Positions 1,681-51,926 of a DNA stretch of 64,000 nt are shown here, piece after piece. This DNA comes from Ophelia neglecta (taxonomy: Eukaryota), in the NCBI GenBank assembly GCA_965285935.1, contig OZ260663.1, positions 24,056,001 to 24,120,000 on the forward strand, read 5' to 3'. Below the pieces are notes generated by a model that ran no database searches, was not told the origin of the DNA, and was given only the letters and a program-made list of their open reading frames with translations. A program made the position numbers and the translations under genes. Every line of letters starts with the position of its first letter. The first letter of the stretch is position 1.

Positions 1681-3574
1681 TTATCAGTCTGGTTTCTGAT
1701 ACAGAACATGACCTCCATGCCCTGGTAAGAACGGGTGACAAAGTGTCCCCTGTTCACCGTGGGAGGTCTGGGGGTTTGTCTAGTTTAGGTTTAGATGCCA
1801 GGTCCTGTTTTTCAATTTTTTTTGATTAATAAAATCTTAAGTGGAATCTACAATTGTGCAAGTAAGAATATAAAAAAAAACACTCAGAAATGTGATAACA
1901 ATCAAGTTTGGCATGCCATATGCTTTAGCGGCTTTCCATGAGATCCCCCCGGCGGGGGGGGGGGGGTAGATGGGGGGGGGGGTTAGGGGGGCACTCCCGT
2001 ATATGGTGGGTCTACGAAGGTTCCTTGGGAAGCCCCCCTCCCTCTTCATATCTCTAAATTAATATCCGCTACATTTGGTAATACTTTGGTTATACTTTCA
2101 GCATGGACCCGCTCTCTATGTCACCACAGATGAGCCCGCTCGATATTGTGATTTTTCCAGAAAAAAAACTCTCTTGAATGAAACTCGTTGCCCCTTCCCA
2201 CCAGTTCCACAGGGTAGTACTCCGTCCCCCTTCCCCGCCCGGATTCAGCTCCATATGCAACCTAGAGCTCATGGTCCTATACTATAGCTCCTTACATGAC
2301 TATCTCAAACTCATGTTACCTTATAAAGCGCGTCCTTAAATTAGCCCTCCATTTTTTCATTGCATGAAGGGACGTAGCACACCCAGGTCAATATTTTACG
2401 CGCTAGCGTTTAAACGAAAAAGGGCTTGCAAGTGTACAGATGACACGACACTAAAACACAAAAAAGCTCAGAGATAACCCCTCGACTCGCTAATTGACAG
2501 TTCTCAGCTCCTCTCTGATGTTGTGGGAAAACCCTGACTATCAGTGCGGTGTGGCTAGTACTGTGAATAACGACTTCTCCCTTTCACTCAACAAGTGGGA
2601 CAGTGCTCGCTCTTTGGCCAGGGAGCTGTCGACTCCATATCTGATAGGAATTGTTGGTTCATTCTGACATCGAAGCCTTGTTCGTCTGTGTATAAAACCT
2701 GCAAATGAATGCAAATCATGCAAGGCCACAAATATTTGCTTTTTTCGAGAGAAATTAACAAGATGCCCCGGCAAAATGCTAACAAGGAACCCTGATAAGT
2801 TATCCTGGACTTTTTACCAATATGTAACACGGGGCAAAGTACCGAACTCTCCCTATCAATTGTTTTGTTTTATTTCTATAAATAAAGTATCTTATAAATA
2901 TAATGATGGAGCAAAAAGATCTATCGTACGTATAAAACCCACTGAGGTACGACACACCAGTGATGGTCTTTTAGATGAAAACATGGGGCAGATAAATTTA
3001 ACGATTGCATCAAATTGGGGTTGTGTGATTATGAAGAAAGCATTGCACTGCTACCTGCTTTAAGTCAGAACTTGTTCTCCCACTGTTCCACTTCAGTAAG
3101 AGGTTGGAAATATATCTCTCTCGCGCACTTGAGGTGATTATGATCAGATATTCATACATCAGTTCTTCTCATAACAACCACAAACTCCCGTTCACTTAAC
3201 AAGATTAAAGAAAATTCGCCAGGCTCTTGTAAAACTTACTTTTATCAAACCCATTTCGAGTTGTGCCTTATCACTAAATACATTGGCGTCAAACAGTTCA
3301 GCCTGTTTTTTTCCGGATTAGCTAACGGCCTACGAGACAACGATTATACAATATCCATAGGGTTAGTATTCGTTGAACGAAAAGCAAACTATGCCTAGAA
3401 ATTGAACTGATAAAACACTGTCCAAAGTCTGACTTTTAACATTAAAGAACGGAAGAACAACAATAAGAATATTCCTAATAGCATCGAGGGCCTTGCACCC
3501 TCGCCAACATCCAAGAAACGAGGAAACTATCAATTACAGAGTAGGCTATATCAATTTCGAGAACAGACTGCAAG

Positions 3575-3772
3575 ATATCAGCATCTGTTTGTTCTACTGA
3601 ATCTGAAGTGAAGCATGAAAGACAATAAACGATATCCTTCACAGCTAGAAATCATGTTTCAACGTGGCGCTGTGTCAAACCACGTGTTTCCAACAGATCA
3701 AAGCCTGGTGAGTTGCAACGATTTGAGACATGTATATCTATAGCAATGAATCCTTCTTAAATTGGAACTTCC
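3575..3772 (+). promoter_or_regulatory. Module D (other copies 16225-16440, 35434-35510; weak 47005-47050)
   Basis: Shared core TATCA...TGTTTGTTCTAC...GA.GTGAA...TGAAAG..AATAAAC. Confidence 0.62.
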
Positions 3773-4960
3773 TGCTGCAACGTACACCCAGGAGTTTCCA
3801 GCTATATTTAATTCATACGGTCACTTTTGAAGGGACTGGATAATCAAAAGACAAAAATAAGACTCAGTCAAATGCATCAAGTCTACCCATTTTCAACTAC
3901 AACGGTTTTGGTGAACTGTTCTTCCAATCCTAAGAACTCAGGGCACGTCGCTGCTTACAAACTCATTATATAATCATGTGTAGCAGGGTATGAGGTAGGT
4001 CCAAATCACAAATAAGGCTTGCCTGCGTCCAAGTGTTAGCACCATGTTACATTAATGCGCAGTCCAGCTTCGTGTTTCCTTATTGTACTGCAAATAGCGC
4101 TGACATCTTTATTTGAAGAATAAAAACTTGTGTAGAATACTTCTTGAGTAGTTATCAAAAGTAAGTCATAATAAAACATCCATATTCAACCTACCTTTGG
4201 TTTACCACTGATTCGTTTGCTTCATAAAATAATTCATCATTCATACTCACAAAATTCGACTCATTTCTGACGTTTAACCGCAAAATCCTTAAAGAAACTT
4301 TAGTTGTGAAACTATAAACATATCGCCAAGTCAGTAAATAAGGTCAGATGCTTGGTTTTGGGCCTCTGGTCAGGTTAAAAACCCACTTCTACGGCGGTGA
4401 TCCCAGGACCAGACGCTACCCATTACACTGCCTAGGAAATATGTTTGCTCCGAAATCCCTTCTTGGGTGTGTATTGTCAGGGATGGGTTTGCTTTGCCAC
4501 ATGTGTTAATGTACAGACAGACGTCGGCAGAAATTGACTGTGGTTAACCAGTCTGAGAATCGTTTTAGGAAAATGAATTACAAAACTCGCTTTTCTAGAG
4601 GCAGAATTTTACCTCTGAAATTGGATTAATAATAAACAAAAGACATTCAACACCCGAAACAAATACAAGGGTATATATATTTTAACGAACATTTTTACAT
4701 TCACTTGCTTGCAAATTAAGGCCTAGTTTATAGTATAAAAACCTCAAAGTGAAGTTTGCTTCATTTGGAAAATCTTCAGTTGGTATAGGCCCAGCTGCCT
4801 AGAAGAACATGACCGACACCTAAGACATCAATGAGGTTTTGTGTGTTCAATTCTATCTCATTTTCTCTATTTATCACTAAGTTACTATAACTAGTTCAGC
4901 TATATATTTTCTCTTTCCTTCATTGACTGACGGCCTAATCAAACAGGCGTCTTAAACACA

Positions 4961-5150
4961 CCCCGCGGGAACATCAAGGGTAACTAGCGAAGGATTCTGA
5001 AGAAGCCGCAGGAATTTCTTATCAGCAATAATAATATTCTAACTGAAATGCCTCATTAAGTCTCAATCCAAACAGATGCCCCTGGATGAGCCTCCGGGTA
5101 ATACAGCCCTCTTTGATGTCTCTCGACAGATAAGGTCACAGTGGATCTAG
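4961..5150 (+). promoter_or_regulatory. Paralogous conserved non-coding module A, copy 1
   Basis: 54 bp (5005-5058) identical to 37469-37522; further homologs at 38267 and 48259. Confidence 0.7.
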
Positions 5151-6057
5151 ATTTATTACAGAACAAAGTCATATCTAGGTTAATTATATTCCGAAACTAG
5201 CAATTAATTTATTTTCCTATTCAAGCAGCGAGTTAATTGTTCAGCCTTGCTTTCCATGATCATTCCTATTGTTTATTTAACTCCATGTGCTGAGCACATC
5301 TCCCCATAACAGTTTGAATCAACAGTAGCTGGTGGGTAGCGAGTATATGGTTAACGCTTATAGGAAACGTTTGACTTGTTCTAGGTTTTAAAAATGTGTC
5401 TTGTGCAAATATTCGCCCCACCGAAGCACATTTTCCCCCCAAGAAGCTTAAGGACCTGTAATCTATAACATCCTTTTATAATTGATGCTGCTATGTTTAA
5501 ATGTCGTTTATAATTATTGTAATATAACTTGTATGAATTGTTTCAATGAAAATATCCAAAACAAGCTGAACATTATTTCCTAGAAGATTCAGTTATTAAA
5601 AGTTATAGAGAGCTAGCCATCGATTCTTCAGTGAAGCCAAACAAAGTCTAAAAATGTCCGACCTGCTTCCATTATACAACTCTATTAATCCATATAGTTT
5701 TCTTTGCATTGATTTGTGCGGAACTAATACAATTCCGTTTGGTCATCAATGTATGCTTCACCAATAAACGGAACAGCCATAAGCTGTTTGTAATCCTTTC
5801 CTTTTTTTATATGTGATGGGAACGCATGCACCCCCCCCCCCACACTAAAAAAAGGGGCATCATATTCCCCCCCCCCCACACTTTTTAATGATGCCCCTCT
5901 TACTTTTTGCTCTCTCAAAATGGTGCAATGCAGGAGTGGTCAAGCGCCTTTCCTCAGTTGGCTTGACCATAATCATATAGTTACCTGTGGGCAGGTTATG
6001 TACAAGCCCATTACACACCCAATAATTGAATGTTTTTGCCATGTACAAATCAATGTA

Positions 6058-6179: not shown

Positions 6180-6767
6180 TTCCACATGCCTTCAATTTTG
6201 ACTACTGAATTAGGCAATACAAGTCCCGTTCTAGAGCCAGTAATCTTATCTTTTTTTCAATATTTACAATCCAACACTCTCTGAATACAAACAACAATTA
6301 TAATCCCTCATAAACACCAGTTGTAACAGCATCAAATCACCCTGCGGGGAATATTTATTTGAGAACCCATGATAGTTTACGCTTTCTTCAAACATTTATT
6401 TTGAAGGTGTTCTTGATGTTAGAGGGCGCCACCTTCTAGTGAGAAGTCAGTAGGATTCACTGCTTGTTTAATGTCTTGCCCTGGTTGGCCACTAAGAGAG
6501 TCTTGTCTTTCTCCTTGTGAGTTCAAAGCCAACAGAAAATGAACCAGTTGTGAAACGTTAATACCACTTTAAATAGAAGCTTGATAACCGAATTTTGTGA
6601 AAAGCGGAAGCGTGGAGCCTTGCGATGGTAAATCCTGAAATTAGAACTGAGCACTAGACCTATTAAACATGTCCCTAACCCGTTCAATAGCCCTAAAATT
6701 AACATTCAACCCTAACCCTTGCCTTGCTGACGATTGTTTCCTTCGTGCCACTCAGAAACATCCATGA

Positions 6768-6957
6768 CCTCCGCCTAACCTCCGCCTGGCCTCCGCCTGG
6801 CCTCCGCATAGCCTCCGCCTGGCCTCCGCATAGCCTCCGCATAGCCTCCGCATAGCCTCCGCATAGCCTCCCGCCTGGCCTCCGCCTGGCCTCCGCCTGG
6901 CCTCCGCCTGGCCTCCGCATAGCCTCCGCATAGCCTCCGCATAGCCTCCGCATAGCC
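6768..6957. repeat. 11-bp minisatellite (CCTCCGCATAG / CCTCCGCCTGG), about 17 copies
   Basis: Directly visible two-variant tandem array; it explains ORF 6699-6953. Confidence 0.95.
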
Positions 6958-9900
6958 TTGTTTAATCAGTAGCCTGATGACCTTGTGATAGCTGACCTTA
7001 CTGAAAAAGGCCCACTTCTTTTATAATATTTTGATTTAGCGAATGATTCTTTAATTATGATGACGTCAGGTCATAATACGACATGAAAAAGGACACTTAT
7101 TACACAGCTACTAAATTATCGCACGATCCTGGATTAGATTAGCTTTCGTTGGGAAGATTAAACTTGACAATGGTTCCCCTCAGTATCCAGCGGTGATCTG
7201 ACTTCTCTTGGGTATAAAGCTCTGTCTGTTCATCGTATTATTATTTTTGTTTATTTATCGTTGCTGATGTTTTCCTGGCTTTGTTACACCATGCCAGCTA
7301 CGATATAAATTACTATAATGTGAAACTTCAGTGTATCAGTGTTCTTAAAGTTTAGTTGTTTTGCTTATACAGTGTTACATGTTTTATATTTTAAACTCTA
7401 TTTACTAAAGATAACGCTTTTACACAAATGTCCTGTGATTTGCTTTACTTGTTGTAGATCTAAAAGGGTGGCCACACGACAGAAATCCTTGATGGATCTT
7501 AATGTGATCTTCCTGACCTTTATATAGTTAATATGATTTCATAAATGTAATTATTATTCTATTTAATGTATTATTTATACTGATTGTTAATTTCCGGCAA
7601 CTGCATATAGTAAAACATTAAGCCTGATAAAGTTTGCTAGGTTTCATGGCGGCACACAGCTTATAGGCGAAACTATAGCTTCAATTGGCAGTTTAAGAGC
7701 CTGTCTAGCTGGTGCAGCCCACTTTCACTGAAGTGATTTATCAGGTGAAAAGAACTTACAAACATATAACTCTGATCCCATTGAAGCTGACCCTCCTTTC
7801 CATAGGGAGAATGATTCAGTGTATATGTCTTGACCTTCTCTAATGTGATACAGTGAAAGCAGTGAAGAGGGCAGCACCACCAAGATTAGTTCTATGCTGA
7901 GGGTAAACGTTCTTTTGAACTCCCTCATTAGCATGTGCTTAGTTCGTCTGTCTCAAATATTAACTACTTTGAGATTAGTTATTGGCGGGTGTTATCTTTC
8001 AACTTAACTCGAAAACGAAACATCAGAAGGCTGTATAAAAGGTTGATAACCTATTTGACATTCTAATTGACACCATTCAACTGCCTCCATTCTGGAATCA
8101 AAACGATGACTCCCTCTGACTCCTTGTATATACGTACCAGATGAAAACATCGTCATTGCCAGGTCCACGCATTTTTCAACACCCCATTAGGCGTGAACAG
8201 TTGCCGCCTAACTCCCAATGGTCAATTATATAACATAATAGCTGAAGTATGAATACATGGATACTAGATAATCTGTTAAAAGCTGCAGGTTTTTTGCAAT
8301 CATATCTATTTTGCAGTATAAATCGGGAAAGTACATCTATATTGCGTATACTTTGAACAAACAGACAACTCTATAATGGATAAGCAAACCGTGTTGTCAG
8401 GTCCCTAATATTACGTGACAGCTTAGAACAGGTAGAGGAATTCGTGCTCAATTGTATACCCGAAGTTTTGAGTTGTGGCTAATGCTATTCTTACCCAGTT
8501 ATGATTTTTTTTTTGCGAATATGGCAATAATAGTGGTACTTCTTATAGTATTGTATATAATCAATATTACCTGTATAAGCCAATCGCCAGCGCGGAATGA
8601 TCTAAAACATAATGGAGAGGTGGTAATCACAGCACCCCCCCCCCCCCAGCCTCCCTTAAGTTTTGCACTTACTGATTTACACGTTATGTTGTTTCACCTA
8701 CTGTCACCATGCTTACTTTAAAAACCTCATCACATTTGTATTTTGATGTTTTGATACATGCCTTGTTTTTAGGGGTCAGATGAAATAAACTGTTAACTAT
8801 ACCAATATCTCTTATATGTTAACTAAACTGATATCTCATACTTCTGGCTAAACTACAGATCGAGTTTAAAACGGACTGTTCGCACCGATTTCAGGCACGT
8901 TTATATATTAAAGATTTCGTTTTGTTCTCCGAGTATTCTCTCTCGTTTTTTCCAATGAGAGCCGGCGATATTCCAACAACCGTAAAGCTGGCCGAGTCCA
9001 CAGTGATCATCTTCGACATCAGCCAAAACCTACCAACCATTCTGTCGTCGTCGTTCTAAGATAACATCCAGATTTCAATGTATAAAAGTCCAGACAGGCC
9101 TGTTGGTTTCTGCCTGACATTTGATCCTAAATAGCTACTTTGAAACTGTTGGTCCACATTTAAACATGGCTTCGAATCGAGAGATTGGAAAGAAAGTCAA
9201 ATCGTGGGAGCTATTCATATTCGTGGCCTAGTTTGCCTAAGGCTAAATATTCCTTTTTACTGGTAGATGTGTGCTTCAAAAACCTCCGACAGAAGCTTTG
9301 AAACTTATTGGACAAGGTAAATAGTTTCTTCAACCAATGATTATGACAATGCTAAATCGTGTATTGTACGCTACTCGTAAATGAACAACCCTGTAACATT
9401 AACCGACTTTTTGTGATTCTCCGTGTCCAAATAGCAATGTGGTGTACGTGTATAATTTCTCAAAATTACTAGCGCTTTACGACTCTACAAGTCCTGGGCA
9501 ATGATATTGGACTGGTAGAAAGCGTGGTACCATATCTATTAAAGCCTGAGGGTGGTTCAGTTAATTTAAGCGATGCTCTTGCATTACTGGAAAACAATAT
9601 CTGGGTAACAGATAGAGTTATCTCTGAAACAAACTATAAGCAGGTTCTACTTACATGATACAGATCCATCGTAACTCATCGGAATATGAAAGTGGGCAAT
9701 CTAGGAGCAATGACTTTAAATTTCAGAGGCAATCGATTGGTTTGATTTGAGTTTCAAATTCTTTTCCTGATTCAAAAGCTTTTTTATTTTGAAGCACAAA
9801 GGCGCGGTTTATAAGTAGTCCATTCAAGGTTGCGTGCGTCTGCTAAATTCAAGGTCCATTGTTGGCATATCAAGATGCCCTCCACCCCGCCCCTCCCAGG

Positions 9901-10814
9901 AAATCAAATACTAGACCCTACAATCAACAGTCACTTTGCAAGGCCATTAAGTGTAAGTCAGAGAACAGTCATTCAATAGTACACAGCCAACAGCCAATGC
10001 CACTAAGCTCAAGAAACTCGCCAACATCTCGACTCTGTAATTGGCAGTTATAACAATTATAATTTTGTATTCAAAAAAAGTTTAGGTTCATAAGTGGCGG
10101 CGAATTAGAATCTTTTGAAGGAGCCCAAGCACCTGACAGTCAATGTATTTTGCCGTTGCACAGATCTGAAAATGATTCAGTTGCAATGAAATCGTGGGCT
10201 CCCGAAAAAGCTTCTGGCGGTGTCTGATCAGAACAATATTTAATGTGTCAAGTAGTCGGTTGTCAAAGAGTCGAAAAGTAGATAATGACGAGAATTATTC
10301 TCTCAGTGGACGCCGGAAGCCCCATTAATATGGGATTTCTGGTCGCATTTATCATTTAGTTATTCTATTCAATCAGTATTGTTCACTTTCACGATCATAT
10401 TTTTTTGGTGGAGTGCTGTGTTCCCGGCCACCGACACTGTTGACGGTAGTAGTCCCTCTACATGTGTTTTAGATTGAACCAGTCCCTGGCTTGGTCCGCA
10501 TGGCATCCATTCCCTATCTCTGAGTTTGTGGTGTTACTGAAAACACTTCCAGAGGGATCTACTGGAGTGCGAAGTAGTGAGGGTTTACACCTTAACATCA
10601 TTATTGCTGATAAAACAGTCCTGAAATATTATGTCGTATTAATCGCATAATTTGTAACCTCTATGGGATAACCACTGCACCCGCTGATTGGAGTTTATTT
10701 CAAGGAATTTCAACAAACCCAAGGAACCACAACAGCTCTTATTGAGGTTAATATCATGAAAACAAGACTGTTCGCACTTTCACGGCTGTTCAAGGCTGTT
10801 CCACTTAACCCCCG

Positions 10815-12575: not shown

Positions 12576-12803
12576 CTGGTACTCTTGACATTTCGGTCTA
12601 GATCTGTTTAGTGCCTGGTCGTGGCCGGATAATGGTATGATCATGCTACGCTCCAGGAGTGAGTAGAAAAAAATAATTTTCATTATTACCTCCTTGGTGC
12701 TTTATTCTTAAAAATCTTATCATTGTTCTTTCCGCTAAGCGCGCGCAATCAAATGCCTATAAACGATGGGTTTTAGTCCTTGAAAACCTATTTGATAGTA
12801 ATA

Positions 12804-12981
12804 CAGTGAAACCTGTGAATTAAAGCCACCCAAGGGACCGGAAAATGCTGGTCTGATTTTGGAGGTGGTCTGTTTAGACAGGTTATTTAACATTGAAAGT
12901 ATATAGCATGGTCATCATGTTAGTGGTCTGAATTGGCAGGTGGTCTGATTATAAGGGTTGTCTTTAAGGCAGGTTCCACTG
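12804..12981. mobile_element. Tc1/mariner-pogo type MITE
   Basis: TA|CAGTGAAACCTG ... CAGGTTCCACTG terminal inverted repeats and repeated internal GGTGGTCTG motifs. Confidence 0.7.
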
Positions 12982-13188
12982 AACTTTCAAACAAAGAGGC
13001 ACTAGTCTGCTAATATTCACCGTTTCATGCCAACAGGAGCAAAAATAATTGCACCATAGTTTCTTTGCAAGTCACATGCTTAAGCTAGGATTTTCCTTGC
13101 TCAATCATAGAAAGGCAAAATATTGTCAATTGAATTACACTAGTAACGTATTTATGTGAGTAGGTTACCTATTTTATAGAGTTGAAAT

Positions 13189-18522: not shown

Positions 18523-19317
18523 AGAATTGCAGTAAATAAAAGAGGCAACTCTCTCAGCATCAACTCGTAGGTTTTTCTAGCTGCATGCTATACGAGGCGT
18601 GATAATTATGAACCATTAGTATATTATAATCTCAATGCTAAAGAAAATGAGAAAAAAAGATTATACTTAAATAGGAAAATTAGGTTTTTACCAAAATGAG
18701 ATATATGATGAGATGTGCAAGTAAATTTATACTGCCTGTGAAGAATGCGACACAAGTAGCACCTGATATTTCTAATAGAACAAAATATTGACATCATCTT
18801 ACTTGCAATATGTCAACGTTTTGCGTCCACTGTTCCTTTCCACCACACGTTTTTGGTTACACCATAACCCATAGGAACATTGCGGAAAACTAAGGCAGGA
18901 CTATGAAGATGCCAATCGATATTTTAATTATGAAAAGAATCTTTTTATCCAAACTACCTCAAGTCTAAATATAAATAAACGATGCATTGGATGAACTTAT
19001 TGAGCTCACTTTGGCCTATGATGTCGGCTGATAAACTGGTCAATCTAGTCTATAATGGCGATATGTCTTCTCAACTTTTATTATGATACATGCCCATAAA
19101 GTTCCTTCGATAAATAAAATTGATATGTTTGTATATCCAATCGAACATGGTCAAAGGAGGGGTAGGAGGAGGAAGTCGTCTGATAAATGAATATGTCTCT
19201 TGCTAGTTGGATCACACTTGCTGCTAAATGCTAGCCTTACAGCTTATGTCAGCACGATTAGCACGGTAGTCTAGACTTTGTCGGCTGTCAGAAACCGTGG
19301 GTGTTGTCAGGGCTTTA

Positions 19318-22400: not shown

Positions 22401-25400
22401 AACGTCTTTGGGAAAACTGGTTTCCTCACCACCTGTGTGGTCTTACCAAATAAGCATCCTATAAAATTAGTCGACTTCCAATGGTCCATATTGGTGATGT
22501 GTTTACAAGAAGAAAAATATGTTATTTCATTGATGATGAAGAAAAAAGATAGGGATATCAGGTTGTAAAATCTGACTGTCTTTGGCCTCTTATAATGTAT
22601 TATTATACAATAACTGTTTATGCAAATACATTCAATATCATGTCTAACTAGTCAAATAGCAGTGCTAAGCAGTAAATTTACTATTTATATTCCTAACTTG
22701 CGGGTCTAGAGAACGGTAAATGAGAGCATGCCCATTTCTCCAGTTCCTCGTTTTAGTCTGCTTATTGCTGAAATGGGCCCCGGTCTCCGCATCAACAATC
22801 CAGGATTACACTGACACCACCAAGCATCATCTCGAACATCGATAATCAGTCATTGTATCTATGATCATATCCACGGGCCAATCATTTTAAGCAACACTGA
22901 AGAAGTTTTGTGCGGAATGTATATTATTCAGTTGATTAAGATAAATTGGAAAGAATGAAGGAATCCCATAACACACGACAGCGAACAAAGGTGATATTTA
23001 CACAATCTGAAAAATCATAAACATGCCGTTTTAATAATTCTCCATACCACCTTGAGGGGTTAACAGGTTGATTTTATGCAACTGAAATTCCTGCGAGTTT
23101 CTACATACAAGCATGCAAAGGCATAAACCAGCTGTAGGCCCAGGTAATGTCGAATTTACCATTTCCCACTGTATATCTGTGCAAATATATCTGTGCATAA
23201 TAGTGGATGATATGCGTATCTTAATGGCATTATTGCTATATGACAGCCAATTTCTGTGCCCTACGTGCTGATGTGCTCATTAGTTACTATTATCAGGGAA
23301 GGTATCCTCAACGAACTGTTGCTTAAATCAATGTATGAAGGGACAGGGATGCCAACATAAAATATATGCTTGGATATATATTGCGTTGCACAAGTGTTGA
23401 GGAAAATGGGTATGTGTCTATTGAAAATATCTGACATCAAATATGTATCCTATTGATCTCGCCAGGTTCTCACATTGGAGACTTGCGGTGCATGTTACGG
23501 TTTACCTAAACACTCAAAACGTAGAGTCTTTTTTATGTCAGGACATACCATACGCGTGATCTATGCGAAGAAAACTGAAACAGAAAGATTGAAGAGAAAT
23601 AAAATATGTTGAGAAGTTTTATCTTCCTACTTTTACAGGTTTTGAGATATTAATGTATAGTTCAATTGATGTCAAATGTAACGGAAATATCGGAGAATAT
23701 TGCAAAACCTCCCAGTCTAGGCCTACAAAGAAGTCGACGCATTATTGTTGTCTGGTTCTGTTAGGCTATAAATCATGCCGCCACAGTAGGAGGAAATCAG
23801 TGTCAGGGGTCGATCATGACTTGTGGGACGAGAGTTTCCAGTTGCCTTTAGATGACATCAAGTTTGACCTGAGCAAGCTGCTACAGAAAACTAATCAACA
23901 ATAGGGTAAATGTACGCGACGTTTCCTCTTTCAAATGCTGTTCTTCACATGTAGAACTCGATTGGTTGAAAACACAAGATTTGACACAACACACTCCAGT
24001 AACATGATTTCTGATGCAAAACGAGATTGTTTATGTCCTTTTACGCTTCCCTTCAGATGCAGTAGAACTAACGGAAACTGATAGCTTCCAGTTGGTTCTT
24101 GAAATTGAAGAAACTTTATGGATATCCTCAGGCAACACCTCACATATACTCTACTCCCCTTCCCCTACCACCATGATCATCAAGCACCCCTTATCCTTGC
24201 TTGGTTTATACAAATTTATTGATTTCTCTGTGGCGCTAACTTCTGCCAATATGGTGACACATCCTCCTCCTACTGTTTTAAAACTTCTGAGAGAAATTTC
24301 AAGAGAATTTTGGTTAGTCAACAGATGAAGCCTGGAGAATAAATGTTAAGGGAACGATTACAGGGACACCTGTCTTAATATATAACACACACACAACAAC
24401 AAAAAAGGAAGTAAAACTTGTTGAGGAATGTTAAAAAATATAATGGGTAATAGAATAAATACGAAGGAATGGTCGACAGGAATGCATCTCTCAATCCTGA
24501 AGCCTAAGCATCAATTCTCAGCTGCCCAAAAGTAAATAAACAAGTTATTAAGGTATCTATAATAAATTAACATTGATATCACTTGCAATGGATTTGTTTA
24601 ATAAAGTATACTTCAAAACACCCTATCATTACTATATGAGAAAGCCCATTCGAAGGTAACGATTCTGTGCCAAGAATTAGCAGCCAGAAAACATTGAAAA
24701 TGTCAGGTCTTTGGCAGGTCGTAAATCAGGGAGCTATTTGTCTAATTATCGCCCCAGTGGCAAACATCCTGTGGAGAGTAATCTGTGCACGCCGAGGATG
24801 CGCAGATATGGTTCGGAAGGTACGCACTACAGGACTTTCAGGAATCTTCATTCCTTGGTAAGAACATATTTGAAATTACCATAATGCTTACCACCTTCTC
24901 AGAATAAACATGTATTTTATTTTGACGATAACAGATACTCCCTTTATGGTAGCAAATACTGGAATGCGAACAATCATTGAATAGCCAGTAACTTTGTGGG
25001 AGTATGCACTGTGCAGTTTCTTCACAATCGCTTATTAGTGTAAGTACTTGTATATAAATGTAGCGCGGTTTGCTAATTGAAAATATATAGAATGAATATT
25101 ATTATATTAGACAGACTAAAATAATCAGAAAAAGGGGTCATATCGGTCTTATGACATATGTATTTTAATTATCTGACGCCGAAATCTCTTCACCGTAAAC
25201 TGTACATTATTATGAGAAAAGGGCTAAACACATTAAATACGTTTGCATTTGCTCGAATGCCAAATTGCATTTCCCCAATGAACGAGGCAGTAATCGCACT
25301 GCAAGAGAGGCGTGAATCATATCTTTGTTTTAATATTTACATTTCAACATACACCGACTATTTACAGATGGTATACCGCGTCAAAAACACTTGTTGTAAC

Positions 25401-25460
25401 AGTTTAAAGTCGCTCTGCAGAAAATATCTATTTGAAAACCCTTTTCTTACAAACATTTAC

Positions 25461-25483
25461 ATATATATATATATATATATATA
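25461..25483. repeat. (AT)n microsatellite
   Basis: Directly visible. Confidence 0.85.
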
Positions 25484-28400
25484 TGTCACATTGGTATTAT
25501 ACGGGGGCGCCACCGACTAGAGAATTGTAGTCGGCTTTAACCATATGTATACCTTAACTATCGATAAAGGTATATATAATATTTTGAAGAGGAGTCGAAA
25601 TTAATATGTTTATATGATTATATCTATAAACTAAATTTGCCTCTGTTCTTTGCCTAAAAAACCGAGAGACCCCGAAACGAAGAGATTTTCTGCCCAGCTA
25701 GATCCGATTTTCCAATGAATCAGACTTGTGAATATACTCGCAGGATGGATAAGTAACAAACACTTAACTGTTTTATGACAAATCGTTAGAGATGATCATA
25801 AATAAATAAAAAGTTGGGTATTGGGTCTTGCAAGGTGCACTTGAACGTTCCTATCTTCCGTCAAAGTGTGATTTGACCTAGAATGAAACTAACAGTTGGT
25901 TGACACAAGACCTTCTACAAACGGGGATTCTTTGGCCGGTAAACTAAGTGTTGATTATGATAAATACCAAGCCCTTCTTATCATTTTACTGGAGTGGAAT
26001 TCTAAGCGGAGAGCACTTGGTTTGCACACGTGATCTTTGTATAAATTTACAAGGTCAAATGTGAGATAGATAGATGCATTATATTATTATAAGTCGTTTC
26101 TGTGTTAAACACAATTGCTTTAAAGTGTATATCAGCGTAAATATAGAGAATATATTGTAAACTGTAGTAAACTATACCAGAAGTGTCTTTACCACCGCAA
26201 TGAGCTCACTGGAGAAGAGTGTATCTGTGAAATGGATCTTCCATAACAAGTCATCGGGTGCATAAACATTGAGAACATTAACACTCTTTATGATGTAATG
26301 TTCTACAAGTAAAATTTACTATAGCCATGATGCATATTGTCTGTGTTTTTGTCAAGACCTGAATGTGATGATGTAGTATGTAATATTCTAAGTTTTCCCC
26401 ACCATTATTTGATTCACACAAGGGCCAGTGTTTGAGCATCTGGTATTAAACCGAAATGTACAATTGTTTTAGTAGAATTCGATTGGTGTGAAACTCCTCA
26501 TCATTTTAGGTATTTTAAGGGACCATACGTCATTTTATCAGGCATCAAGAGTTTCTATCATTATCACTAAGTACGAAGGTAAAGCAGTACATAAGCAACA
26601 TATAAATTCAGCACATTTTAGTAAGTAATGCTCATTTACTATGTTAGTTGCATATTTTTCAAGCACCAGTTGAAAACTGGGCCCTAATAATAGGGATTAC
26701 TTTGTTTAAAACCAGGCAATCCAGTTGCACCATGAATTGTTTTTCATTCTGAATATATCAGAGGACGAATTGTTAACTGACATAAATTTACATTGTTAAA
26801 ATAATAAAGTCGACAATTCACTAAAAAATTAACACGAAACAGCCGCCAAGCAAAGAAACAAATTACTCAATAAAAATAGTTGCATAGTGAGTTGTGGTTT
26901 GCATAGGATAGACCACATCCGTGAAGACGATATACCGCACAGGAGACTTACTCGAATGGCCAATTCACTTATATATAAACTGCATTTTATACGCCGCCTA
27001 ACACACACATTGCTTTAATTCTTTTGGAGCTTGGAACCACTACCGGCTGTTTAAAATCAGTTTGCAAACTGGATCGACCTTTGGCACCAAATGCCCCCTG
27101 CCGGGGAAGCGACGACTTGTCAAATTGTTTCATGATTTATAACCTGCCGTTATCGGGTTGACAATCGCTATATTGGAATTTGACACTTGCTACGATTACC
27201 GCATAACGGCGTTAGGCAAAACAGAACATTTTCACGCCAACTAATCTTACAACTTAGAGAAGAGGAAACATGAACTTTGTAACCAGCGCGGTGTTAAGAT
27301 ATATTCAGTATATTTATTAGGCATATAATCCATACACTTAATTACTGCTTCCTCGGGTTTGCAGGTGAACATAATCAGTTATCATCAGATGATAGGCAAT
27401 CCTCATCAGAGGTTAATCCATTGCCAAACAGGTATACCCGTTTACAGATATAAACCCCATGGATAGCGCCCTTTATATGTCTGGTCCTCTGGTGACATAG
27501 TTATCATATTTGAAGGTTTGTGATGCACCAACAAGTCCCCAGTAGGAACTAAAGCTACATTTTAACTGGATTTTTATTAGTTTTGAAATCATATTAAAAG
27601 TCAACAAATCATTCGCCGAATTTGCAAAATTGCAGAAGGCATTGTACAGTCAGTATTCTAAATTGGACTATCATATCCAAGGTCACTTGCAGATATCTTC
27701 GCGTAGGTCTCTTAATCAGTGGCAAACACTCATAGTTGTGTAATAACGAGAAGCAATTAAACAGATTCCTCTATTAATTTATCTAGGAATAAATTCAATT
27801 TGTACCGTATTTTTCGTGCGTACGAATTCATATTCCTTGTCAAAATATATTTGTCAGGTCTATGCTTATCTTTTCCGCGTTTAAACAATGAGGTCTTGAA
27901 ATATGACAGAACATAGTCAAATAAATCAACTACACAAATACACTGTAGTATATTAGTAGTACAGAAGTTTTCTAAGGCCAATGTGGTGAAAGTACGCAAG
28001 CTTATATGATTTAAAAAGCTCTGCGCGCTCAACTAGGCACGTGTACATATTATGGGAAATCATTTCGGCAGTGTGGAAAGCCGAACTCAGTACTTGGGCA
28101 GATCTGAGAGGTCGTATACACATGTCAGGGACAGAACGAATGCTTTTAGGTGTCTGGCACCGGCTGGGTGGTCTACTTGGCACCATGCATCTCTGTGAGG
28201 CTGGACTATTTGCGGTTGTTGGCTTTCTATATGTAACCGATGAATTATCTTGACTTATACTTGGGAAATATGCCTTACCCAGTTATTAACAACTCGAAAA
28301 TAGAAGATACAAATGAGGTCAATATGTCTAATACGTCTTGCCAATTAAAAACGAGCGGACCAAGAAAACTGGGTTATTAGATGTATTTAATGGTAATGGG

Positions 28401-34400: not shown

Positions 34401-37400
34401 TTCTGAATGTAAAAAACTCACCATTTCAGCCCACCAACACCGACAATCGGAAGAGGCTGTGCATGATACGGTTTATCGGGTGACAAGAAAACATTGTTAA
34501 ATATTTTTAAAATGCGTACGTTTCAAAGCATATAGTACACCTTGAGATCGCGTCGTGAATAGTCCTCTTCGGAATATGCATAAATGGCTTCATTTGTGTG
34601 CGGTTTCGCGCACTTGTCTCTCGGACATACGATTTTTATCTGATGCTTCCGGGTTTTCAAAATACATGTTATTGAAAATATTTTATGTCGCTTCATTTAA
34701 CCTAATACAAATTTCAATGTTCAAAATCAGTTTTGATTTAATCAAATTAGATGATGTACAGATGCCAAATAGAACCCCAAAACTAGTTTAAGTGTTTAAC
34801 TCCAGTTTAAACAAATGAACGTTATTTTTATGGAGAATACAATCAGGTAATAATCATCTAAACTTGAAAAAAGGAGGAAAAGATATGTTTTTTTGCCAAT
34901 ACTATAGACAACTTCCAAGTGGAACAAAGCATAAACAATTACGTGGTATTGTGTTTGTTAAGCTTTATTCCCGACTGGTATAATAATGTTGCAGTAAGAC
35001 AGTGCCGCTCATCCATGCCACCCATATGTATGTAAATAACAACTTGTTTTTTATAAGTTACACAGCATTTGTGTTTATCGGTAAAAAAGGTATTTATTGC
35101 ATGTAAACTTCACCAATTAAAGCTAGATGTATAACTTAGGTTAGTTCCTCTTTATCGAGCATATTTCCCATCTGTTTTATATTGTACATGTTATGTTAAG
35201 TAACACTTGGCAATCTTAAAATTTCGACATCGTGTGAAACACAGACATATGTTCGCCCTTTCCATCTTATTTGAATCTTCATCCGCTTCGATCATATGTG
35301 TAATAGCTATATGATGGGTACGGCACATAGGGAGAAAAAGGCCCTAGGTGTTGGAATGGATACCAGTTGTGAATGAAGAAAGAGAAAACGAAGAAGAAGA
35401 TTAAGCTATCAATATCAGGAACCAAATGCTAAGTATCAATTTCTGTTTGTTCTACTGGGCCTGAAGTGAACCGTGAAAGGAAATAAACAAGTCCTTCACA
35501 ATTGACGTTTCCGGCGCGTGCCATGTCTAACCCACTGAGCCTGACTATTTCGATACCATCGATAAATGTGTTGTGAGATACGATAACAAAAAGCTTGCAT
35601 CTCATATTGACAATATTATAAGAAACAAAATACATCGAGTGGGGCTGTGATATTCAAAACATTATTTAAATACCAGCCATCTCCATCACTTACCAAAAAG
35701 GCAATAAAGGAAGCATGATATTTAGTCCGTTTCAACTAGGAAGTTTATCGGTTTTATTTTACTTTATTTTTCATAGATTGTATCACTATCCTTATTCGGA
35801 TTCCTGCCACAGAGACTGGCATTCAAATCAACTCAAAGTTGTCACGCATGAGGTACGGAATAATGCATATCATATGATATGTAATATGTAAATGACTTGG
35901 CGTTGAAAATCGCATCACAGTCAAATCCAAGATGACATTGAAGTGCCCCTCATTCAGATACGGTTCTGTCATCGGATACGGAGCAGAGGTCTATAAGTGG
36001 GGTTTGTATTAGAATCAGGACCTAGGCCTAGTCGTTCCATTTTCAGAAATGATAGAGGAACCTGGTTTTGAGGGTCGTCTTTGAATCAGTCGAGTCTGGC
36101 GCTGGCAAGTCTGTATACAAAATTGGGGTTGCAATCTGACTCGGGGTTAAATTGAATTAGAATTTTGAACACCGAGGTCTGGACATATCTGCTGCTTACT
36201 CCTCTTACCTTCTTGTGATAGTACATGGGTACACATTCGTCTTCGAATAACATATATGAAGCACTAGTCGTGAAACACTTACTAGACTGTGAAAAGAACA
36301 AAACAACGTTTTACTTCTGCATAAAACTTAGCGGTCAAATAAATTATTTTGTTATTAAACATTTCGCCTGTTTCGACCAATACACGTACATCAGTCCACA
36401 GCTAAATGAAAATAAACATTACGCTGGTTACTTTTAATTAAACAACATCTGAAGATAGAAGAAAAGCATTCTGATTAACTGTGATTGTAATAAAGCAGAG
36501 TTGTTAAGTAGATAAATCAATAAAAAACAAAACGACAGACGCTTAATGTCCATTTCGGAGGTCGTCAGTGATGTCCACATTAAATCCCCACTCGAGTTCA
36601 TCTGATGGTAAACTGCTGACTGATGCTCGAAGGATCTGTAAGATATCGCGAGGAGATTGGCTTGAGATCCGACCTCGTCTGGAGAATGTATTGCTCGGGA
36701 TCAATTACAGTGGCACATGTGCTGATGTACAAACCGCTGTCGACAGAAATCGACTGTGACCTTGTTGAGAAATGGAGTTCAGACAGGGAATGACTAACTG
36801 GGTTATGGGTCTCTCTACCTTATAACTGTCCCGTGTGGTGGTCGCTCATCCCAGCACTGACTACCGTTATCATGGTTCGTATACCATCTACAACCTGTAT
36901 AGAATCTCGTACGCAAAACGTTATGTTGGTATCATACTAAACAGAAATACTGGGAATGCTTCATTTGTCATGGTAAAAACAGGCTCGGGATTTGGAGTTA
37001 TAAATCTAGTTTTGTAAATAAATTATTAAACCATTCCAATAACTGTGTTATAGAACAAGGCGACCACGCTTAGCAAACCATATTTACAAACATTGAGTCT
37101 ATAATGGAATAATATGAATCCAACCTAATTACGCTGAGATGCTGAGAACTGTTGAGAGGATCCATTGAAAACGATAGCGGCATATTGTTTCCCGCAAGCT
37201 TAGTCTCAAAGGTTCATGCCTGATAGAACGCCAACTTAAATCCAACATAGACGTTTTCTTATTGTGAATGTTTTCCAGCAATAGGCGCATACGCCATATA
37301 TGCTCTCTAACGTGTCTCTGATAAAGACGACAGTAAAAAGTCACATTTCTCTATTATATTTTACGAATTTTGGCATACGCCTGCACTGAGGTTTTTCCAT

Positions 37401-37424
37401 TATGGTACTCTGATCGCAGTAATA

Positions 37425-37615
37425 CCCCGTGGGGACATCTGAGAAACTTAATGAAGGATTCTACAGACGCCGCAGGAATTTCTTATCAGCAATAATAATA
37501 TTCTAACTGAAATGCCTCATTAGGTCGCTATTTAAACAGATGCCCCTGGTAGTGCCTCCGGTAATATCTCTACCTCTGATGTCTGCCGATAGACAAAATC
37601 AGGGTGGTAGCTAGG
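37425..37615 (+). promoter_or_regulatory. Module A, copy 2
   Basis: Core GGAATTTCTTATCAGCAATAATAATATTCTAACTGAAATGCCTCATTA...AAACAGATGCCCC. Confidence 0.7.
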
Positions 37616-38266
37616 TTATTTGGCAGCTCCGATAATATCCTTGCAATTAAAATATGAAAGAACAGAAAAGCTAATCATATGTCTGGGATAGCTTTTGAGG
37701 AATATTAAAATGGGTCAATGTTACTGATCACTCTAGTTTCTTGTAATCACTCCGCAGTCAAATCCACACGTTCTATATGACAGCATAGCGCCGCACGTGA
37801 CATGCGTTCTGAAATACCGAACACGCCTGGCTGTTAAATACATACAAGAAAACAAAGGAGGTTTCAGGCGGTGAGCTCGTCGTAAATCACAGAGAGATTG
37901 GTCTAATCCTCGCCCTGGTGTAACGCGCCTGCTGAGGTCAGAGATCAACGTGTGTGGGGTCGAAAGTGTACAGCTCATGCAGCTGTCGAGCCTCGGCCCT
38001 CTAGACTCGAGGGCTGAAGGCTTTTGTCTCGCACTTTTATCAAATACATAGACATATAAAACAAAACCACCCCACCAGTAGTTGCGACTCGTTTTTTCTC
38101 TATAAACCGCTTACTGTAATGAAACAAAAACAGTTTTCTCTTCTCACAAAGCATCCGTCATTTACTTGCGAAAGTCTGCGGATTATTCCAAAGAAAATTA
38201 TAAGACTCATATTTAGATAATATATATATATACATGTAGATAATTCAGTCGATCTCTCTTCCGCGT

Positions 38267-38395
38267 GCCCTGCGGAAATGTCCAGAGGAATCTAATGAGA
38301 ATTTCAAAGACGCCGCTTGAATTTCTTATCGGCAATAATAATACAGTTAACGAAATGCCTCATTAGGTTTCTATCTAAACAGATGCCCCCGGATA
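38267..38395 (+). promoter_or_regulatory. Module A, copy 3
   Basis: GAATTTCTTATCGGCAATAATAATA...GAAATGCCTCATTAGG...TAAACAGATGCCCC. Confidence 0.65.
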
Positions 38396-39019
38396 TTTAT
38401 CACAGTATATGACCCGTCGAAGACACGACCCACTTTGATCCACGTCATAACTACCCGGCCTGGTACTATGTACATGGCCTTTACATATAATTGAGTCTTC
38501 AATGTGAATGTTTACAAAGAAAAGTCCTGAAGTGAAGGTTAAACTTCTGTTTTCCAGGGTCATCATTGGGTATTGGTGGTCGAGGTAGACACAAATTGCC
38601 GAAGTTTAGAGAACCAATTCAGCTCCTGATGCTGTAGGTTAGAATAAATGTGTTGAAAACATCTTGCTTGGCGTTAGCGAACAACTTAAAATGTCTTACA
38701 TCTTCCCAATAAATGCTTAATTGTGCGTGCCTTTCTTCAACTTCTCCTGTTAAGTAAACAAAGGCTTAGAAATATCAGTTAATATAAGCGGGCCTACTTC
38801 GTTATTTATCACGCACTTCAGAGCTTTCCACTGTAGGTGGAGCCACTTATCGGCGGCGCTGGTCACAAATAAGTTTGCACAATTTAAGACTCATCTGCGG
38901 AACTAGGAACTTGGGTGAGAGGTCGGTTTTCACTGTTGTGATGTATGATAGGCGGGCTCTCCGGGAGGCTGGGTTAGGAACTAAGAGGAGCTGGAACCAT
39001 CGACAACCTGGTTCTGGCT

Positions 39020-39690
39020 TTAGGAGGAGCTAGAGCCACCACCTTCAAGGAGAGACAGAGGCTGGCGTTAGCTCTGAGAGGAGGTAGAGCCAGCTACCAC
39101 CTTCAAGGACAGAGGCTGACTCTGAGAAGAGCTAGAGCCAGCCATCACCTACAAGGACAGAGGCTGACTCTGAGAGGAGCTAGAGACAGCCATCACCTAC
39201 AAGAACAGAGGCTGACTCTGAGAGGAGCTAGAGCCAGCCATCACCTACAAGAACAGAGGCTGACTCTGAGAGGAGGTAGAGCCAGCCATCACCTACAAGG
39301 ACAGAGGCTGACTTTGAGAGGAGCTAGAGCCAGCCATCACCTACAAGGACAGAGGCTGACTCTGAGAGGAGCTAGAGCCAGCCATCACCTACAAGGACAG
39401 AAGCTGACTCTGAGAGGAGCTAGAGCCAGCCATCACCTACAAGGACAGAGGCTGACTTTGAGAGGAGCTAGAGCCAGCCATCACCTACAAAAACAGTGGC
39501 TGACTCTGAGAGGAGCTAGAGCCAGCCATCACCTACAAGAACAGAGGCTGACACTGAGAGGAGCTAGGGCCAGCCATAACCTACAAGAACAGAGGCTGAC
39601 TCTGAGAGGAGCTAGAGCCAGCCATCACCTACAAGGACAGAGGCTGGCTCTGAGAGGAGCTAGAGCCAGCCATAACCTACAAGGACTGAA
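39020..39690. repeat. 48-bp minisatellite, about 14 copies
   Basis: Unit CTGAGAGGAGCTAGAGCCAGCCATCACCTACAAGGACAGAGGCTGACT; it explains ORF 39314-39796. Confidence 0.95.
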
Positions 39691-40853: not shown

Positions 40854-42265
40854 TTACTGTCTGTAACTTCCCCCTGATTGGGACAATCCTGTACATTGAT
40901 ATTGTAATTGGTTGTCGTTAAATGGCGGTACAGGATAGTAGCAGGGTTTTTGGTTGAACTCTGAAATCGGCATTGTGTCTGGAATGAAAAGAAATAGGCA
41001 TTTAATAATACAAATGTGCAGAGGATATGGATAAAGCATGCAGTATATTTAGACAGTAAACACCTATATAATATATTGGGCCACTTATTAAACGGGTAAC
41101 ATATTAATATGACATTTGATATATAAACAGGAATTTTATTTTAACAATACATGCTTTTGTTCCCAATTGGACATCTATATGCATTACATTATATAACACA
41201 GGTCGTAAGTTCATACTTCCAAGCCAGGATACAACCAATAAAAGTACACATACCTTGTTCATATTCGTTTTTGATATGGACAGATTTCCCGGCAATGTTC
41301 TGTCCGTAGCCTGGTTCAATGGGCGAGGCACTTGGATATGATCCTGTGCTGCCCGACGGGCTGAAGCCAGCCCGGCAGTATGGGGATTGCCAGTCTCTTG
41401 AGGAGGCCTGTTGGACACACGTTCTGTTATGCCCAGCACTGAGATCGTGGGTATAAGTATAGTATTGGTTTCGGTCGACACAGTTTGAGTACTGTGGCTG
41501 ACTCATTTCTGTAGAATAATGTCCGGAGACATTCCCTGAGCTGTAGGTTGTCTCGCCGCTTGTTATAGACGACATTGGGACAGCGGTCCCCGGATAGGAA
41601 AGAGCCGGTGCCATGTGAGGGCCTTGTTGGATGTCATAATAACCGCCAAACATAGCCGGAGAGACGGACATATTGCTGAGCAGCCCGTACGATTTGAGTG
41701 CCTGACATTTCCTACGAAACCCTCGGGGCCGTCGCCGGAATGATCCCTCCTCAAACATGAACTCCGCTGAGGGGTCCACCGTCCAGTAATGTCCCTTTCC
41801 CGGCCGTCCAAATCCCTTAGGCAGCTTGATGAAGCACTCGTTAAGCGAGAGATTATGTCGCAGTGAGTTTTTCCAGCCTTGATAAGATCCTCGGAAGAAA
41901 GGAAACTTTTGTTGTAGGAAACTGTAGATTTCATTGAGAGTAGATCGTTTGGTGGGCGAGGCCTGTATGGCCATGACTATTAGAGCTATGTAGCTATACG
42001 GGGGCTTCTCCTGTCGCCGGAGGCTCGCCGCGGCCTTGTCCTTCGATACTTTGCTGTCCATGTCACCAGCAGAGTTGTCTCCATCGGTGGAATCGCAGTC
42101 AGTCTCTGTTATTCCTTTGTTATCGGGCGTTTGTTCTTCCTTTATCACTGGATTGTTAACATCTGAGTCGAGTTTCTCAGATTTAACTATTGGAATTTGG
42201 CTGTGAATAGGCAAGCCTGCTGTATAAAAGCTGGTACAGCGTGGTGGTACGACTTGGCAGTCCAT
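40854..42265 (-). CDS. FoxF: Forkhead box F transcription factor, two exons (42265-41254 and 40978-40854), 378 aa predicted
   Basis: The ORF contains [22 protein letters not shown]...[67 protein letters not shown], diagnostic of class F forkhead domains (domain about 41708-42010). Donor CAAG|GTATGT at 41254/41253 and acceptor TTTCTTTTCATTCCAG|AC at 40979/40978 join in phase 1. This adds [41 protein letters not shown]. Exon 2 is also conserved at codon level in the paralogous pseudogene. Confidence 0.96.
40979..41253 (-). other. FoxF: 275-bp GT-AG phase-1 intron of FoxF
   Basis: GTATGT donor, polypyrimidine tract plus CAG acceptor, AT-rich interior and frame-compatible junction. The acceptor is conserved in the pseudogene (TCTTTCCATTTCAG ending at 51393). 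Confidence 0.88.
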
Positions 42266-42509
42266 CCTATTTAACTTTTCACTTTTGTTACAATAAAATC
42301 ACTCCAAATCGTGACTGTCCGGGCACTAAGCAAGCGAAGTTCCGGTATATTTGAGCTACAGACTATTGGTGGTTGAGCTAAATTTTCTAGGCCGCAGTGA
42401 AGTGAACTGCAGTAGAAGGCAGACATTTACTAAATACGCCCCAGTGACTGCTGCTCATGGGATCCATTATTATTGACTACCTCACAGCTGGAGTACAGAC
42501 CGCCATACA

Positions 42510-42590
42510 ACGCCAGGGGGCGGAGCCTACGAATACGTATCTCACCAATAGGAATTCACGAGCAGACGACAAGCAGAATGTCGGTGATCT
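42510..42590 (-). promoter_or_regulatory. Putative FoxF proximal promoter (GC box plus CCAAT box)
   Basis: GGGGCGGAGC at 42517-42526 and CCAAT at 42545-42549, about 250-280 bp upstream of the ATG. The same pair with near-identical spacing lies upstream of the pseudogene (GGCGGAGC 54777, CCAAT 54802). Confidence 0.55.
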
Positions 42591-45588: not shown

Positions 45589-47469
45589 GCGGCCAACGCT
45601 TTGTCTCGCGCAGCCTCAACCCTGCCTTTTGTGGCAAAACAAAATACATGATAGATGAGGATACATGAGCGAGCTCTAACATTTCTGGTCATTCACTCTA
45701 AAGATGGTTTCTTACCAGTTACATACCAGATGGTTGTTTTCGCCCAATATGTTTCAAGTCAGTTTCAGCAGGTCATGGTTCTGAGATCAATTTGATCCAG
45801 AAACTCCTCGGATCGCATGTCTGGTGCCACGGAGCGAGAGGGGCTGCTTCGGTGAGTTTGTTCAGCTGTCGCCTGGAATGTTCTGGACAGAATGTCAATA
45901 ATATATGTTGTGATTAAACGCTGCACGGCAGCAGTGTGGAGGATGTCGCTTTTAGCTTTTTAACAAACAAACAAAATGGCTCTCAAAGGAGAGACACCCA
46001 GAAGAGGGGGCTCTTAGACTCCCAGAGTTGGGGGTTCCGTGACTCAAGTGTGGAGAGGCACCGAGTTGAGGGGTTGACTCCAAGATGAGCGGGGGGGGGG
46101 GGCTCTCAATGTTAGAGGGCCTCTAACAGAATGGACTTCGGATTTCGGAAGGCTCAAAGTTAGTCCGTGAAAAAGGACTCCGTGAAAAACAGGGGCTCCG
46201 AGGGATGGGACCCGGGAGGACTCGGGAATACTCAAAGAAATTACGTCAATCGACAAGTAACTAACACATTGATTCTATATCGGCTGCGAACGCTTCTAAA
46301 AGGACGTTCGACCCATTGGCCACAGGCTCTTGGACGATCTACAGATATTCGATGAATAGCACCTGCGCTTGTTGGTTTTAATAGCCGCTTACTAACTTGG
46401 GGAGGACCTGTTGACGTCTGCTACTTCAATATTTACAATCAAAGCGTGTAAGAACACAAACAACAATCATTACACCCCGTTAACTCATTGTAACAGAATC
46501 ATAATCGCCGAGATAGAACTATTTATGTGATCACCACTGATAGTTTACTTACACTTCAAATATTTATTCTTCTAGGTACTGCTCTGCATACAGATGGCGC
46601 CACCAGCCTGTGAGCGATGTAAACTTTCATTGCTCGCTGGCCACAGAAACAGAGAGAGTGGGCAACCGGAACAACCTTAAAACAGATAACTCAATGCCTT
46701 TTATTCGGATTTGGATTCGCAAATACCTTGTCTGGTATTTCTTATTTCGAAGTGCCGCATTTTCTATATTTCTTAATACGCATCATCGCAAATTCATCGA
46801 GTACAAGTCCTATCTCTGTAAAACAATACAGCGTCCTGAAAGTCTTTACACAACTTTGATTATTTGAGTGTCAGTGCCCGTGACGGTTGGAAAGCACAAA
46901 CTATGAGAATGCAGGTTTAAAACCATCATTTGAAGTTGCCTGCCCCCCCCCCCCCCTTCACATAAACCTGAAAATATAGCTTATTATATGGAAAGCCCCT
47001 ACACTACACATTGTAGAGTTTGAAGCATGTGAACATAATGATTGATATCTAACCATCCTCATTTAATTAAAAAGCTGATCTGACCATGTCAGCGCTGTGG
47101 CACTACTTTTTGAGAACGAATTTGCAAATACAAACATATTTATACTGTGAAAATATTATACTTTAAGAATAAAGTTGTGGTTTGTACTCCCCTGGAAAGA
47201 ACCTTTAATAAAATGACATGAACGCAGGCACGAATGAAATTTATATGTCCGCAAAGTCATCATCTCTAAGCCAGGTTACAAGAAACCTGCAAATGCGGAC
47301 GTTTAATTACTAACCATTGACCAAGCTAGTTCTTTTTTAGTTTATTTATCTTCAAAGTATTTTTGGTATCCTCGTCAGCCCACCAAACACGTGAAACCGC
47401 CATGGTCTTTCAACTTACTCTTTGATCTATAATGTATTTGAGCAGAATGGGGTTTGAAGGCAAGTTGAT

Positions 47470-47990: not shown

Positions 47991-48258
47991 TTACTCGGTA
48001 GATTAGTATTTCTTAAATGAATAAACTATACTATATATGATTCATAATATCGTGATTATATCATTTCGAGCAGTGAATAAAATGGTGATCGGAGTTTATT
48101 AATATAAGGGGAACAATATACGAGGAAATCACAAACATCCGAACGATATTATCATTAAACAAGCGAAAATAACCATTTGCGCTCATTATTATAGCCATAC
48201 TGAACTTCAAAAGTTTCTTTCCATAACAGTTTTGGAATACTCTGCAAGGAATCGAATG

Positions 48259-51804: not shown

Positions 51805-51926
51805 CGAGCTGTCCGACGAGCTGTCCGACGAGCTGTCCGACGAGCTGTCCGACGAGCTGTCCGACGAGCTGTCCGACGAGATGTCCGACGAGATGTCCGA
51901 CGAGATGTCCGACGAGATGTCCGACG
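51805..51926. repeat. 12-bp minisatellite (CGAGCTGTCCGA / CGAGATGTCCGA), about 10 copies
   Basis: Perfect tandem units in two homogeneous variant blocks, inside pseudogene exon 1. Confidence 0.95.

Follow-up and report, generated by a model that had tools for sequence, protein, structure and literature searches.

Repeated non-coding islands in a tandem FoxF cluster of Ophelia neglecta, two of which share an identical 54-bp tract

The FoxF gene cluster

The window, a stretch of 64,000 nucleotides of the Ophelia neglecta genome, covers the right-hand half of a FoxF cluster that is specific to its lineage and contains three intact genes and one pseudogene (Table 1). Among the 120 relatives listed for FoxF3, the closest named ones are mostly FoxF proteins from nemerteans, molluscs, annelids and brachiopods. 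The three intact paralogs form a single clade (SH-aLRT 100) within Lophotrochozoa in a rapidly computed tree of 54 proteins, which was made up of the three proteins of the locus and 51 of the 120 listed relatives and which places them no more finely than Lophotrochozoa. This single clade implies that the cluster arose by a lineage-specific tandem expansion. Other tandem groups of Fox genes are present in the genome, with three copies at C9:28618819-28633063 and seven lying close together at C12:45.19-45.28 Mb.

Repeats of other kinds are also found in and around the cluster. Two direct repeats of 515 bp (51960-52474 and 53372-53886), which are 99.8% identical and 1412 bp apart, sit within the insertion that splits the FoxF pseudogene, and probably represent a mobile element or a duplication of recent origin. 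An inverted repeat of 970 bp (82%) that carries a 42-bp tandem array is formed by 247-1163 and approximately -2033 to -1100, and the orientation of the cluster flips there. Tandem arrays of 48, 11 and 12 bp are located at 39072-39686, 6768-6958 and 51805-51926 respectively, and a long satellite of ~465-bp units starts to the right of the cluster (~+79 kb to +156 kb).

Table 1. Genes, modules and module A copies at the locus, in window coordinates (negative positions lie to the left of the window)
Feature	Position	Strand	Remarks
FoxF1	-34915		intact; ~35 kb left of the window
FoxF2	-14190		intact; ~14 kb left of the window
FoxF3 open frame	41189-42265	-	358 aa with forkhead domain; probably exon 1
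FoxF4 pseudogene	53904-54520	-	deletion in the forkhead box, and stops; 3' remnant at 51755-51823
Module G	42394-42534	-	immediately 5' of the start in each of the three intact FoxF genes; likely promoter
Module D	3537-3702	+	precedes A1; its paralog at 35399-35537 precedes A2
Module F	4429-4563	+	upstream of A1; paralogs at 18370, 24287, 36627 and 47542
Module F	36627-36773	+	upstream of A2
Module A copy 1 (A1)	4960-5153	+	80% over 196 bp to A2
54-bp tract, first copy	5005-5058	+	identical to 37469-37522; longest exact run in 286 paralogous island pairs
Module B	6230-6443	+	9 copies in the cluster; others at 25303-25523, 46403-46614 and 59381-59541
Module A, diverged inverted copy	10516-10625	-	adjoins a module E copy; nhmmer E 2.5e-4 with the A1-A4 profile
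Module A, candidate decayed copy	18864-19027	+	E 0.013; lies between F (18370) and E (19296), as expected from the module order
Module E, further copies	19296, 24692, 27037		16 copies in all
Module A copy 2 (A2)	37424-37617	+	3.6 kb downstream of FoxF3
54-bp tract, second copy	37469-37522	+	maximal exact match to 5005-5058; read-derived contig starts at 37493
Module E	37852-37990	+	between A2 and A3; TGATTTACGAC on the minus strand
Module A copy 3 (A3)	38267-38443	+	carries a 15-bp insertion; core 45/54
Module A copy 4 (A4)	48241-48403	+	occupies the F-A-E slot that follows the FoxF pseudogene downstream; core 47/54
Module E	48822-48932	+	adjoins A4

Repeated islands across the cluster

A self-comparison of 264 kb exposed many short islands present in multiple copies. 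Using iterated profiles, 83 copies of 60-250 bp, belonging to 16 families, were identified between -70 kb and +60 kb (E < 0.002, a value that is circular for the members that built a profile); with the dispersed repeat J left out, they total 12.3 kb of the 130 kb. When the profiles were applied to reversed sequence, 16 of 18 gave no match and the other two gave one each. None of eight island families tested could be found beyond -70 kb to +60 kb within the 264 kb, and module profiles were without a match in all eight cases at two other Fox loci. The density of local-only islands, obtained with the same filter, is 64 per 100 kb at the FoxF cluster, compared with 14 at each of two other Fox loci.

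The islands differ from the sequence between them in that module pairs align (3/3, with 0/100 shuffles as good), whereas none of six spacer pairs scores above shuffles. The preliminary description of this DNA regarded the surroundings of the 54-bp tract as unrelated; this holds for the spacers, but modules D and F precede A1 and A2 alike and do so in the same order (D-F-A). Two further orders recur, namely F-A-E downstream of both FoxF3 and the FoxF4 pseudogene, and B-C-G upstream of FoxF1 and at one gene-less place. At the latter, a copy of module G follows B and C at about -59790, representing a promoter without a gene. No FoxF coding remnant could be found behind this copy or behind other B-C units, and it is probably the trace of a lost FoxF copy. 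Not all islands may be distal elements, given the promoter position of family G and the possibility that family Ae is a second exon.

A half site that we take to be CTCF-like is present in seven of the nine module B copies, compared with 0.5% in the background, and the copies at -6350 and 6230 have an exact run of 40 bp in common. Module E ends in GATTTA(C/T)GAC; the pattern GATTTAYRAC occurs in 5/16 copies against a background of 0.4%, CAGCTG is found in 7/16 and TTGGCA in 8/16, and both occurrences of TGATTTACGAC in the 130 kb fall within this module; these motifs, too, were noticed post hoc. In the available excerpt of PMC6532930, ATGATTTACGAC is the selected HoxA9:Pbx1 site, and the module E motif matches the optimal HoxA9:Pbx1 site given there. 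Binding of proteins by the islands would be better supported by the neighbouring module E than by the motifs of module A.

Module A and its copies

The identity first reported for this locus is exact: 5005-5058 equals 37469-37522 at 54 of 54 bases and cannot be extended as an exact match in either direction. The homology between A1 and A2 nevertheless continues past the tract, over ~195-196 bp at 80%. With 154 of 195 columns alike, a run of 54 arises in only 1 of 100000 shuffles, which is far beyond uniform chance. Across A1-A4 the core is the best conserved part of the module, 39 of its 54 columns being invariant as compared with 10/44 and 29/61 in the flanks.

The four copies described initially are all real, including those at 38267 and 48241-48259, but the count was too low. 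A profile built from A1-A4 detected four further copies (E 1e-10 to 2.5e-4), one in the window and three to its left, while the best E in a reversed-sequence control was 0.93. With iteration of the profile, a marginal copy at -24.8 kb is gained and the candidate at 18864 is no longer recovered. The FoxF cluster thus contains at least eight copies of module A. What had been overlooked is that module A is part of a duplicated unit comprising numerous other modules as well as several FoxF genes, and this unit explains most of the observed repetition of module A.

A high genome-wide copy number had been named beforehand as an observation that would speak against a constrained enhancer core. No such number emerged: a search of the 762-Mb genome returned four candidates for A, four for B, four for F and one for E, all within the cluster, whereas the control repeat J (~190 bp, 12790-12990) returned 2825. 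The genome searches are word-seeded, skip common words and missed the distant A copies, so that these counts are a lower bound; the profiles covered 464 kb. When one mismatch was allowed, a core pattern of 22 bases likewise matched four places in the genome, all of them in the cluster. A metagenome scan with a core pattern gave no match, a result that is uninformative.

Sequencing reads also bear on the identity of the tract. Contigs derived from three public runs of one sample, possibly the assembly's own, were compared with A2 and A3. The contig at A2 begins at 37493, the first 31-mer to leave the repeat, 31 bases presumably being the word size of these contigs. As it starts where the repeat ends, the reads themselves would fork at this point, which argues that the 54-bp identity is no assembly error.

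Motifs in module A

The sequences CTTATC, CTCATTA and AAACAG(A/T)TG, to which the preliminary description had drawn attention, do occur in all of A1-A4, as does CTTTGATGTC in copies 1 and 4; CTTTGAT is found additionally in copy 3. At the position of AAACA, which had been labelled Fox-like, RYAAAYA, which we take to be the canonical forkhead pattern, is unmatched in each of the four copies. Background frequencies were estimated from 3000 windows of 165 bp, with patterns assumed to stand for GATA (WGATAR, 42%), homeodomain (TAATKA, 24%), Fox (AAACA, 62%), E-box (CAGWTG, 12%) and TCF (CTTTGWW, 13%) sites. The combined background for four motifs is 0.8%, a figure that was set aside as evidence because the motifs were picked post hoc.

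Five distant copies of module A retain the GATA site in two cases, the E-box in two, and CTCATTA and CTTTGAT in none, and no named motif is kept in every distant copy. Agreement of these copies with the A1-A4 majority is higher in motif columns (101/141) than in other columns (242/438; p 6e-4, with cells that are not independent). Restricting the comparison to columns invariant in A1-A4 leaves a marginal difference (95/131 against 121/195; p 0.056, the cells again not being independent). The proposal that module A is an enhancer core survives in part: a cis-regulatory element of FoxF is still the best reading, but the particular grammar of named motifs gains little from sites that occur in 12-62% of background windows. 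A mesodermal role for module A would be a reasonable inference and no more, the label being applied because FoxF is mesodermal in other spiralians, as it is in all those studied according to the available part of PMC9539403.

Gene conversion and constraint

The 54-bp run goes only moderately beyond what shared constraint on the core would give. Allowing for such constraint, the run has a p of 0.016 on polymorphic sites and of ~0.09 over six pairs; simulation under the constraint estimated from A3/A4 gives p 0.003-0.005, uncorrected. The longest exact runs among the 286 island pairs are 54, 40, 38 and 31 bp, such that the run of 54 tops a continuum. The pair A1/A2 is the extreme of the 271 pairs that do not involve J, and is the closest pair of module A copies anyway (0.78).

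Gene conversion operates among the FoxF paralogs at this locus. The paralog that is the odd one out switches in blocks (3 runs of 31 labels, seen in 0/100000 shuffles), exact tracts of 101 bp and 74 bp are shared by FoxF1/FoxF3 and FoxF1/FoxF2 respectively, and the resulting patchwork of forkhead boxes links genes of opposite orientation that are separated by as much as 76 kb. Synonymous differences number 18/97, 16/96 and 27/94 codons in the forkhead box and 51/78, 36/55 and 40/89 in the C-terminal part, although the low synonymous divergence of the forkhead box could partly reflect codon constraint. As conversion is evident in the coding sequences, conversion acting together with constraint is the likeliest cause of the 54-bp run, although the balance between this and constraint alone is about even. 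An enhancer core and local conversion had been offered as alternatives; probably both processes act.

It is possible, if rather unlikely as an account of the whole, that module A is the same regulatory element and that its 54-bp identity results from constraint alone, with A1 and A2 keeping the ancestral core and A3 and A4 being relaxed. The concentration of invariant columns in the core of all four copies is what this predicts, and of the 15 variable core sites, 14 vary in A3 alone or A4 alone. No shared derived base could be found in A1/A2; at the one site that sets them apart from A3 as well as A4, the distant copies agree with A1/A2. In addition, one p of ~0.004 is expected among 271 pairs. 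The 3' flank of A1 is slightly nearer to that of A4 (50/62) than to that of A2 (46/61). It is harder for constraint alone to accommodate the contrast within the A1/A2 pair, in which 29 of 106 flank sites differ, motif-adjacent ones included, and none of the 54 core sites does, even at positions outside the named motifs. The conversion seen in the neighbouring FoxF genes also tells against it.

Origin and function of the array

The FoxF unit has been duplicated repeatedly, some of the gene copies have been lost or have decayed, and the same short islands survive. On this pattern of sequence, module A is probably a cis-regulatory element that was multiplied by duplication of the FoxF unit and kept by selection, after which conversion probably homogenised the 54-bp core of A1 and A2. 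Each duplication of the unit would have copied module A, and selection would then have held the islands while the spacers decayed, including at places from which the gene copy has disappeared. The islands may bind transcription factors and act on nearby or remaining FoxF promoters. Several module copies would serve genes other than those with which they arose, because the modules (at least 8 of A, 9 of B and 16 of E) outnumber the genes (three and a pseudogene). The core is already ~85% alike between copies, a retained similarity that may let occasional non-allelic conversion even out such short stretches, as is suggested for A1 and A2.

A more far-reaching version of this history can be put forward only tentatively. 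It would have the FoxF unit duplicated about nine times to give a 130-kb landscape from which the genes were mostly discarded and the modules (8-16 per family) kept, with conversion transferring binding-site cores from one enhancer to another over tens of kilobases. If true, the enhancers of a multicopy array would be evolving in concert.

The islands might be constrained without being enhancers, acting instead as boundary, tethering or Polycomb-type elements or as exons of an unstructured long non-coding RNA, which we regard as improbable. The CTCF-like half site so frequent in module B would fit such a role, as would the fact that, to either side of the inversion point, the copies mostly share one orientation, but the copies at 10516, 23956 and -8056 are inverted relative to their neighbours. 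The Hox-Pbx-type site of module E and the promoter position of module G likewise point away from it. No conserved fold was detected either: ten folds, covering both strands, gave z from -1.3 to 0.8, the alignment yielded no consensus pairs and Rfam no match, which led to a structured RNA being rejected as the identity of module A. A scan of NCBIfam gave no match.

It is very unlikely that the islands are neutral relics of old duplications, that is, random alignable fragments kept alike by conversion while the spacers were replaced through insertions and deletions. Indel turnover in this genome is high (many allelic indels and loose ends are present among those listed), conversion is active, and decay is evident in the pseudogene and the gene-less promoter. 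However, random survival would leave differing fragments in each unit, and instead the matching conserved blocks are the same 100-200-bp cores in 5 to 16 separate copies. Furthermore, the islands are still 60-86% identical, while the synonymous sites of the FoxF C-terminal part are 45-65% diverged. Finally, that module A is a transposon fragment, a small coding exon or an assembly artefact can be dismissed almost entirely: one frame is open across the core in A1-A4 and ends in a stop at a common position, but distant copies carry 7-bp and 1-bp core indels and have lost the stop, there is no codon periodicity (0.35, 0.29 and 0.32), A1 and A2 have no synonymous difference, and the four genome-wide candidates (against 2825 for J as positive control) and the fork of the read-derived contig at the repeat end are at odds with a transposon or other interspersed repeat and with an artefact respectively.

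Comparison with known systems

Module A has the traits of a paralogous conserved non-coding element, in that it is non-coding, lacks RNA structure and is more alike between copies than its flanks are; it is also low in copy number and confined to the vicinity of paralogous developmental genes, as far as searches of limited sensitivity reveal. Non-allelic gene conversion between tandem paralogs is recognisable by brief stretches of identity within otherwise diverged sequence and by patchwork affinities. Such conversion is demonstrated here for the forkhead box, and only suggested for the 54-bp non-coding tract.

A close parallel is in amphioxus, where paralogous non-coding blocks of the Irx-Sowah region were reportedly duplicated along with a tandem cluster of developmental genes, a case ascribed to Maeso et al. 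in 2012. Elements 1a, 5b, 6a, 6c, 9d, 10b and 10d of that region are tabulated among previously verified cis-regulatory elements in the accessible portion of PMC5010895. The array described here differs in that the genes are FoxF, there are 8-16 module copies for three genes and a pseudogene, conversion is seen in the genes, no bystander gene is known, and the islands are known from sequence only.

The vertebrate duplicated conserved non-coding elements (McEwen 2006, as cited in the available text of PMC3826495) are similar in that paralogous islands lie near paralogous developmental genes; they go back to whole-genome duplication and are spread over different chromosomes, whereas the FoxF array is local, tandem and of high copy number. 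According to the same portion of that source, conserved non-coding elements in one genome otherwise bear no relation to each other, and segmental duplications are depleted of them. The tunicate Ciona has a known Foxf enhancer, as far as the available part of PMC6952182 describes it; its likeness to the FoxF islands is by gene only, and no homology is claimed.

No FoxF tandem cluster with paralogous elements was found in a literature search that covered listings, the openings of abstracts and passages of open papers. By itself the 54-bp match is a modest curiosity, and the array is the finding: one locus provides up to 16 natural variants of a single element, from which binding-site footprints could be derived without a second species, and it makes testable both the idea that duplicated enhancers outlive their genes and the idea that conversion keeps enhancers alike. 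The array is real, and paralogous elements of this kind are already known elsewhere.
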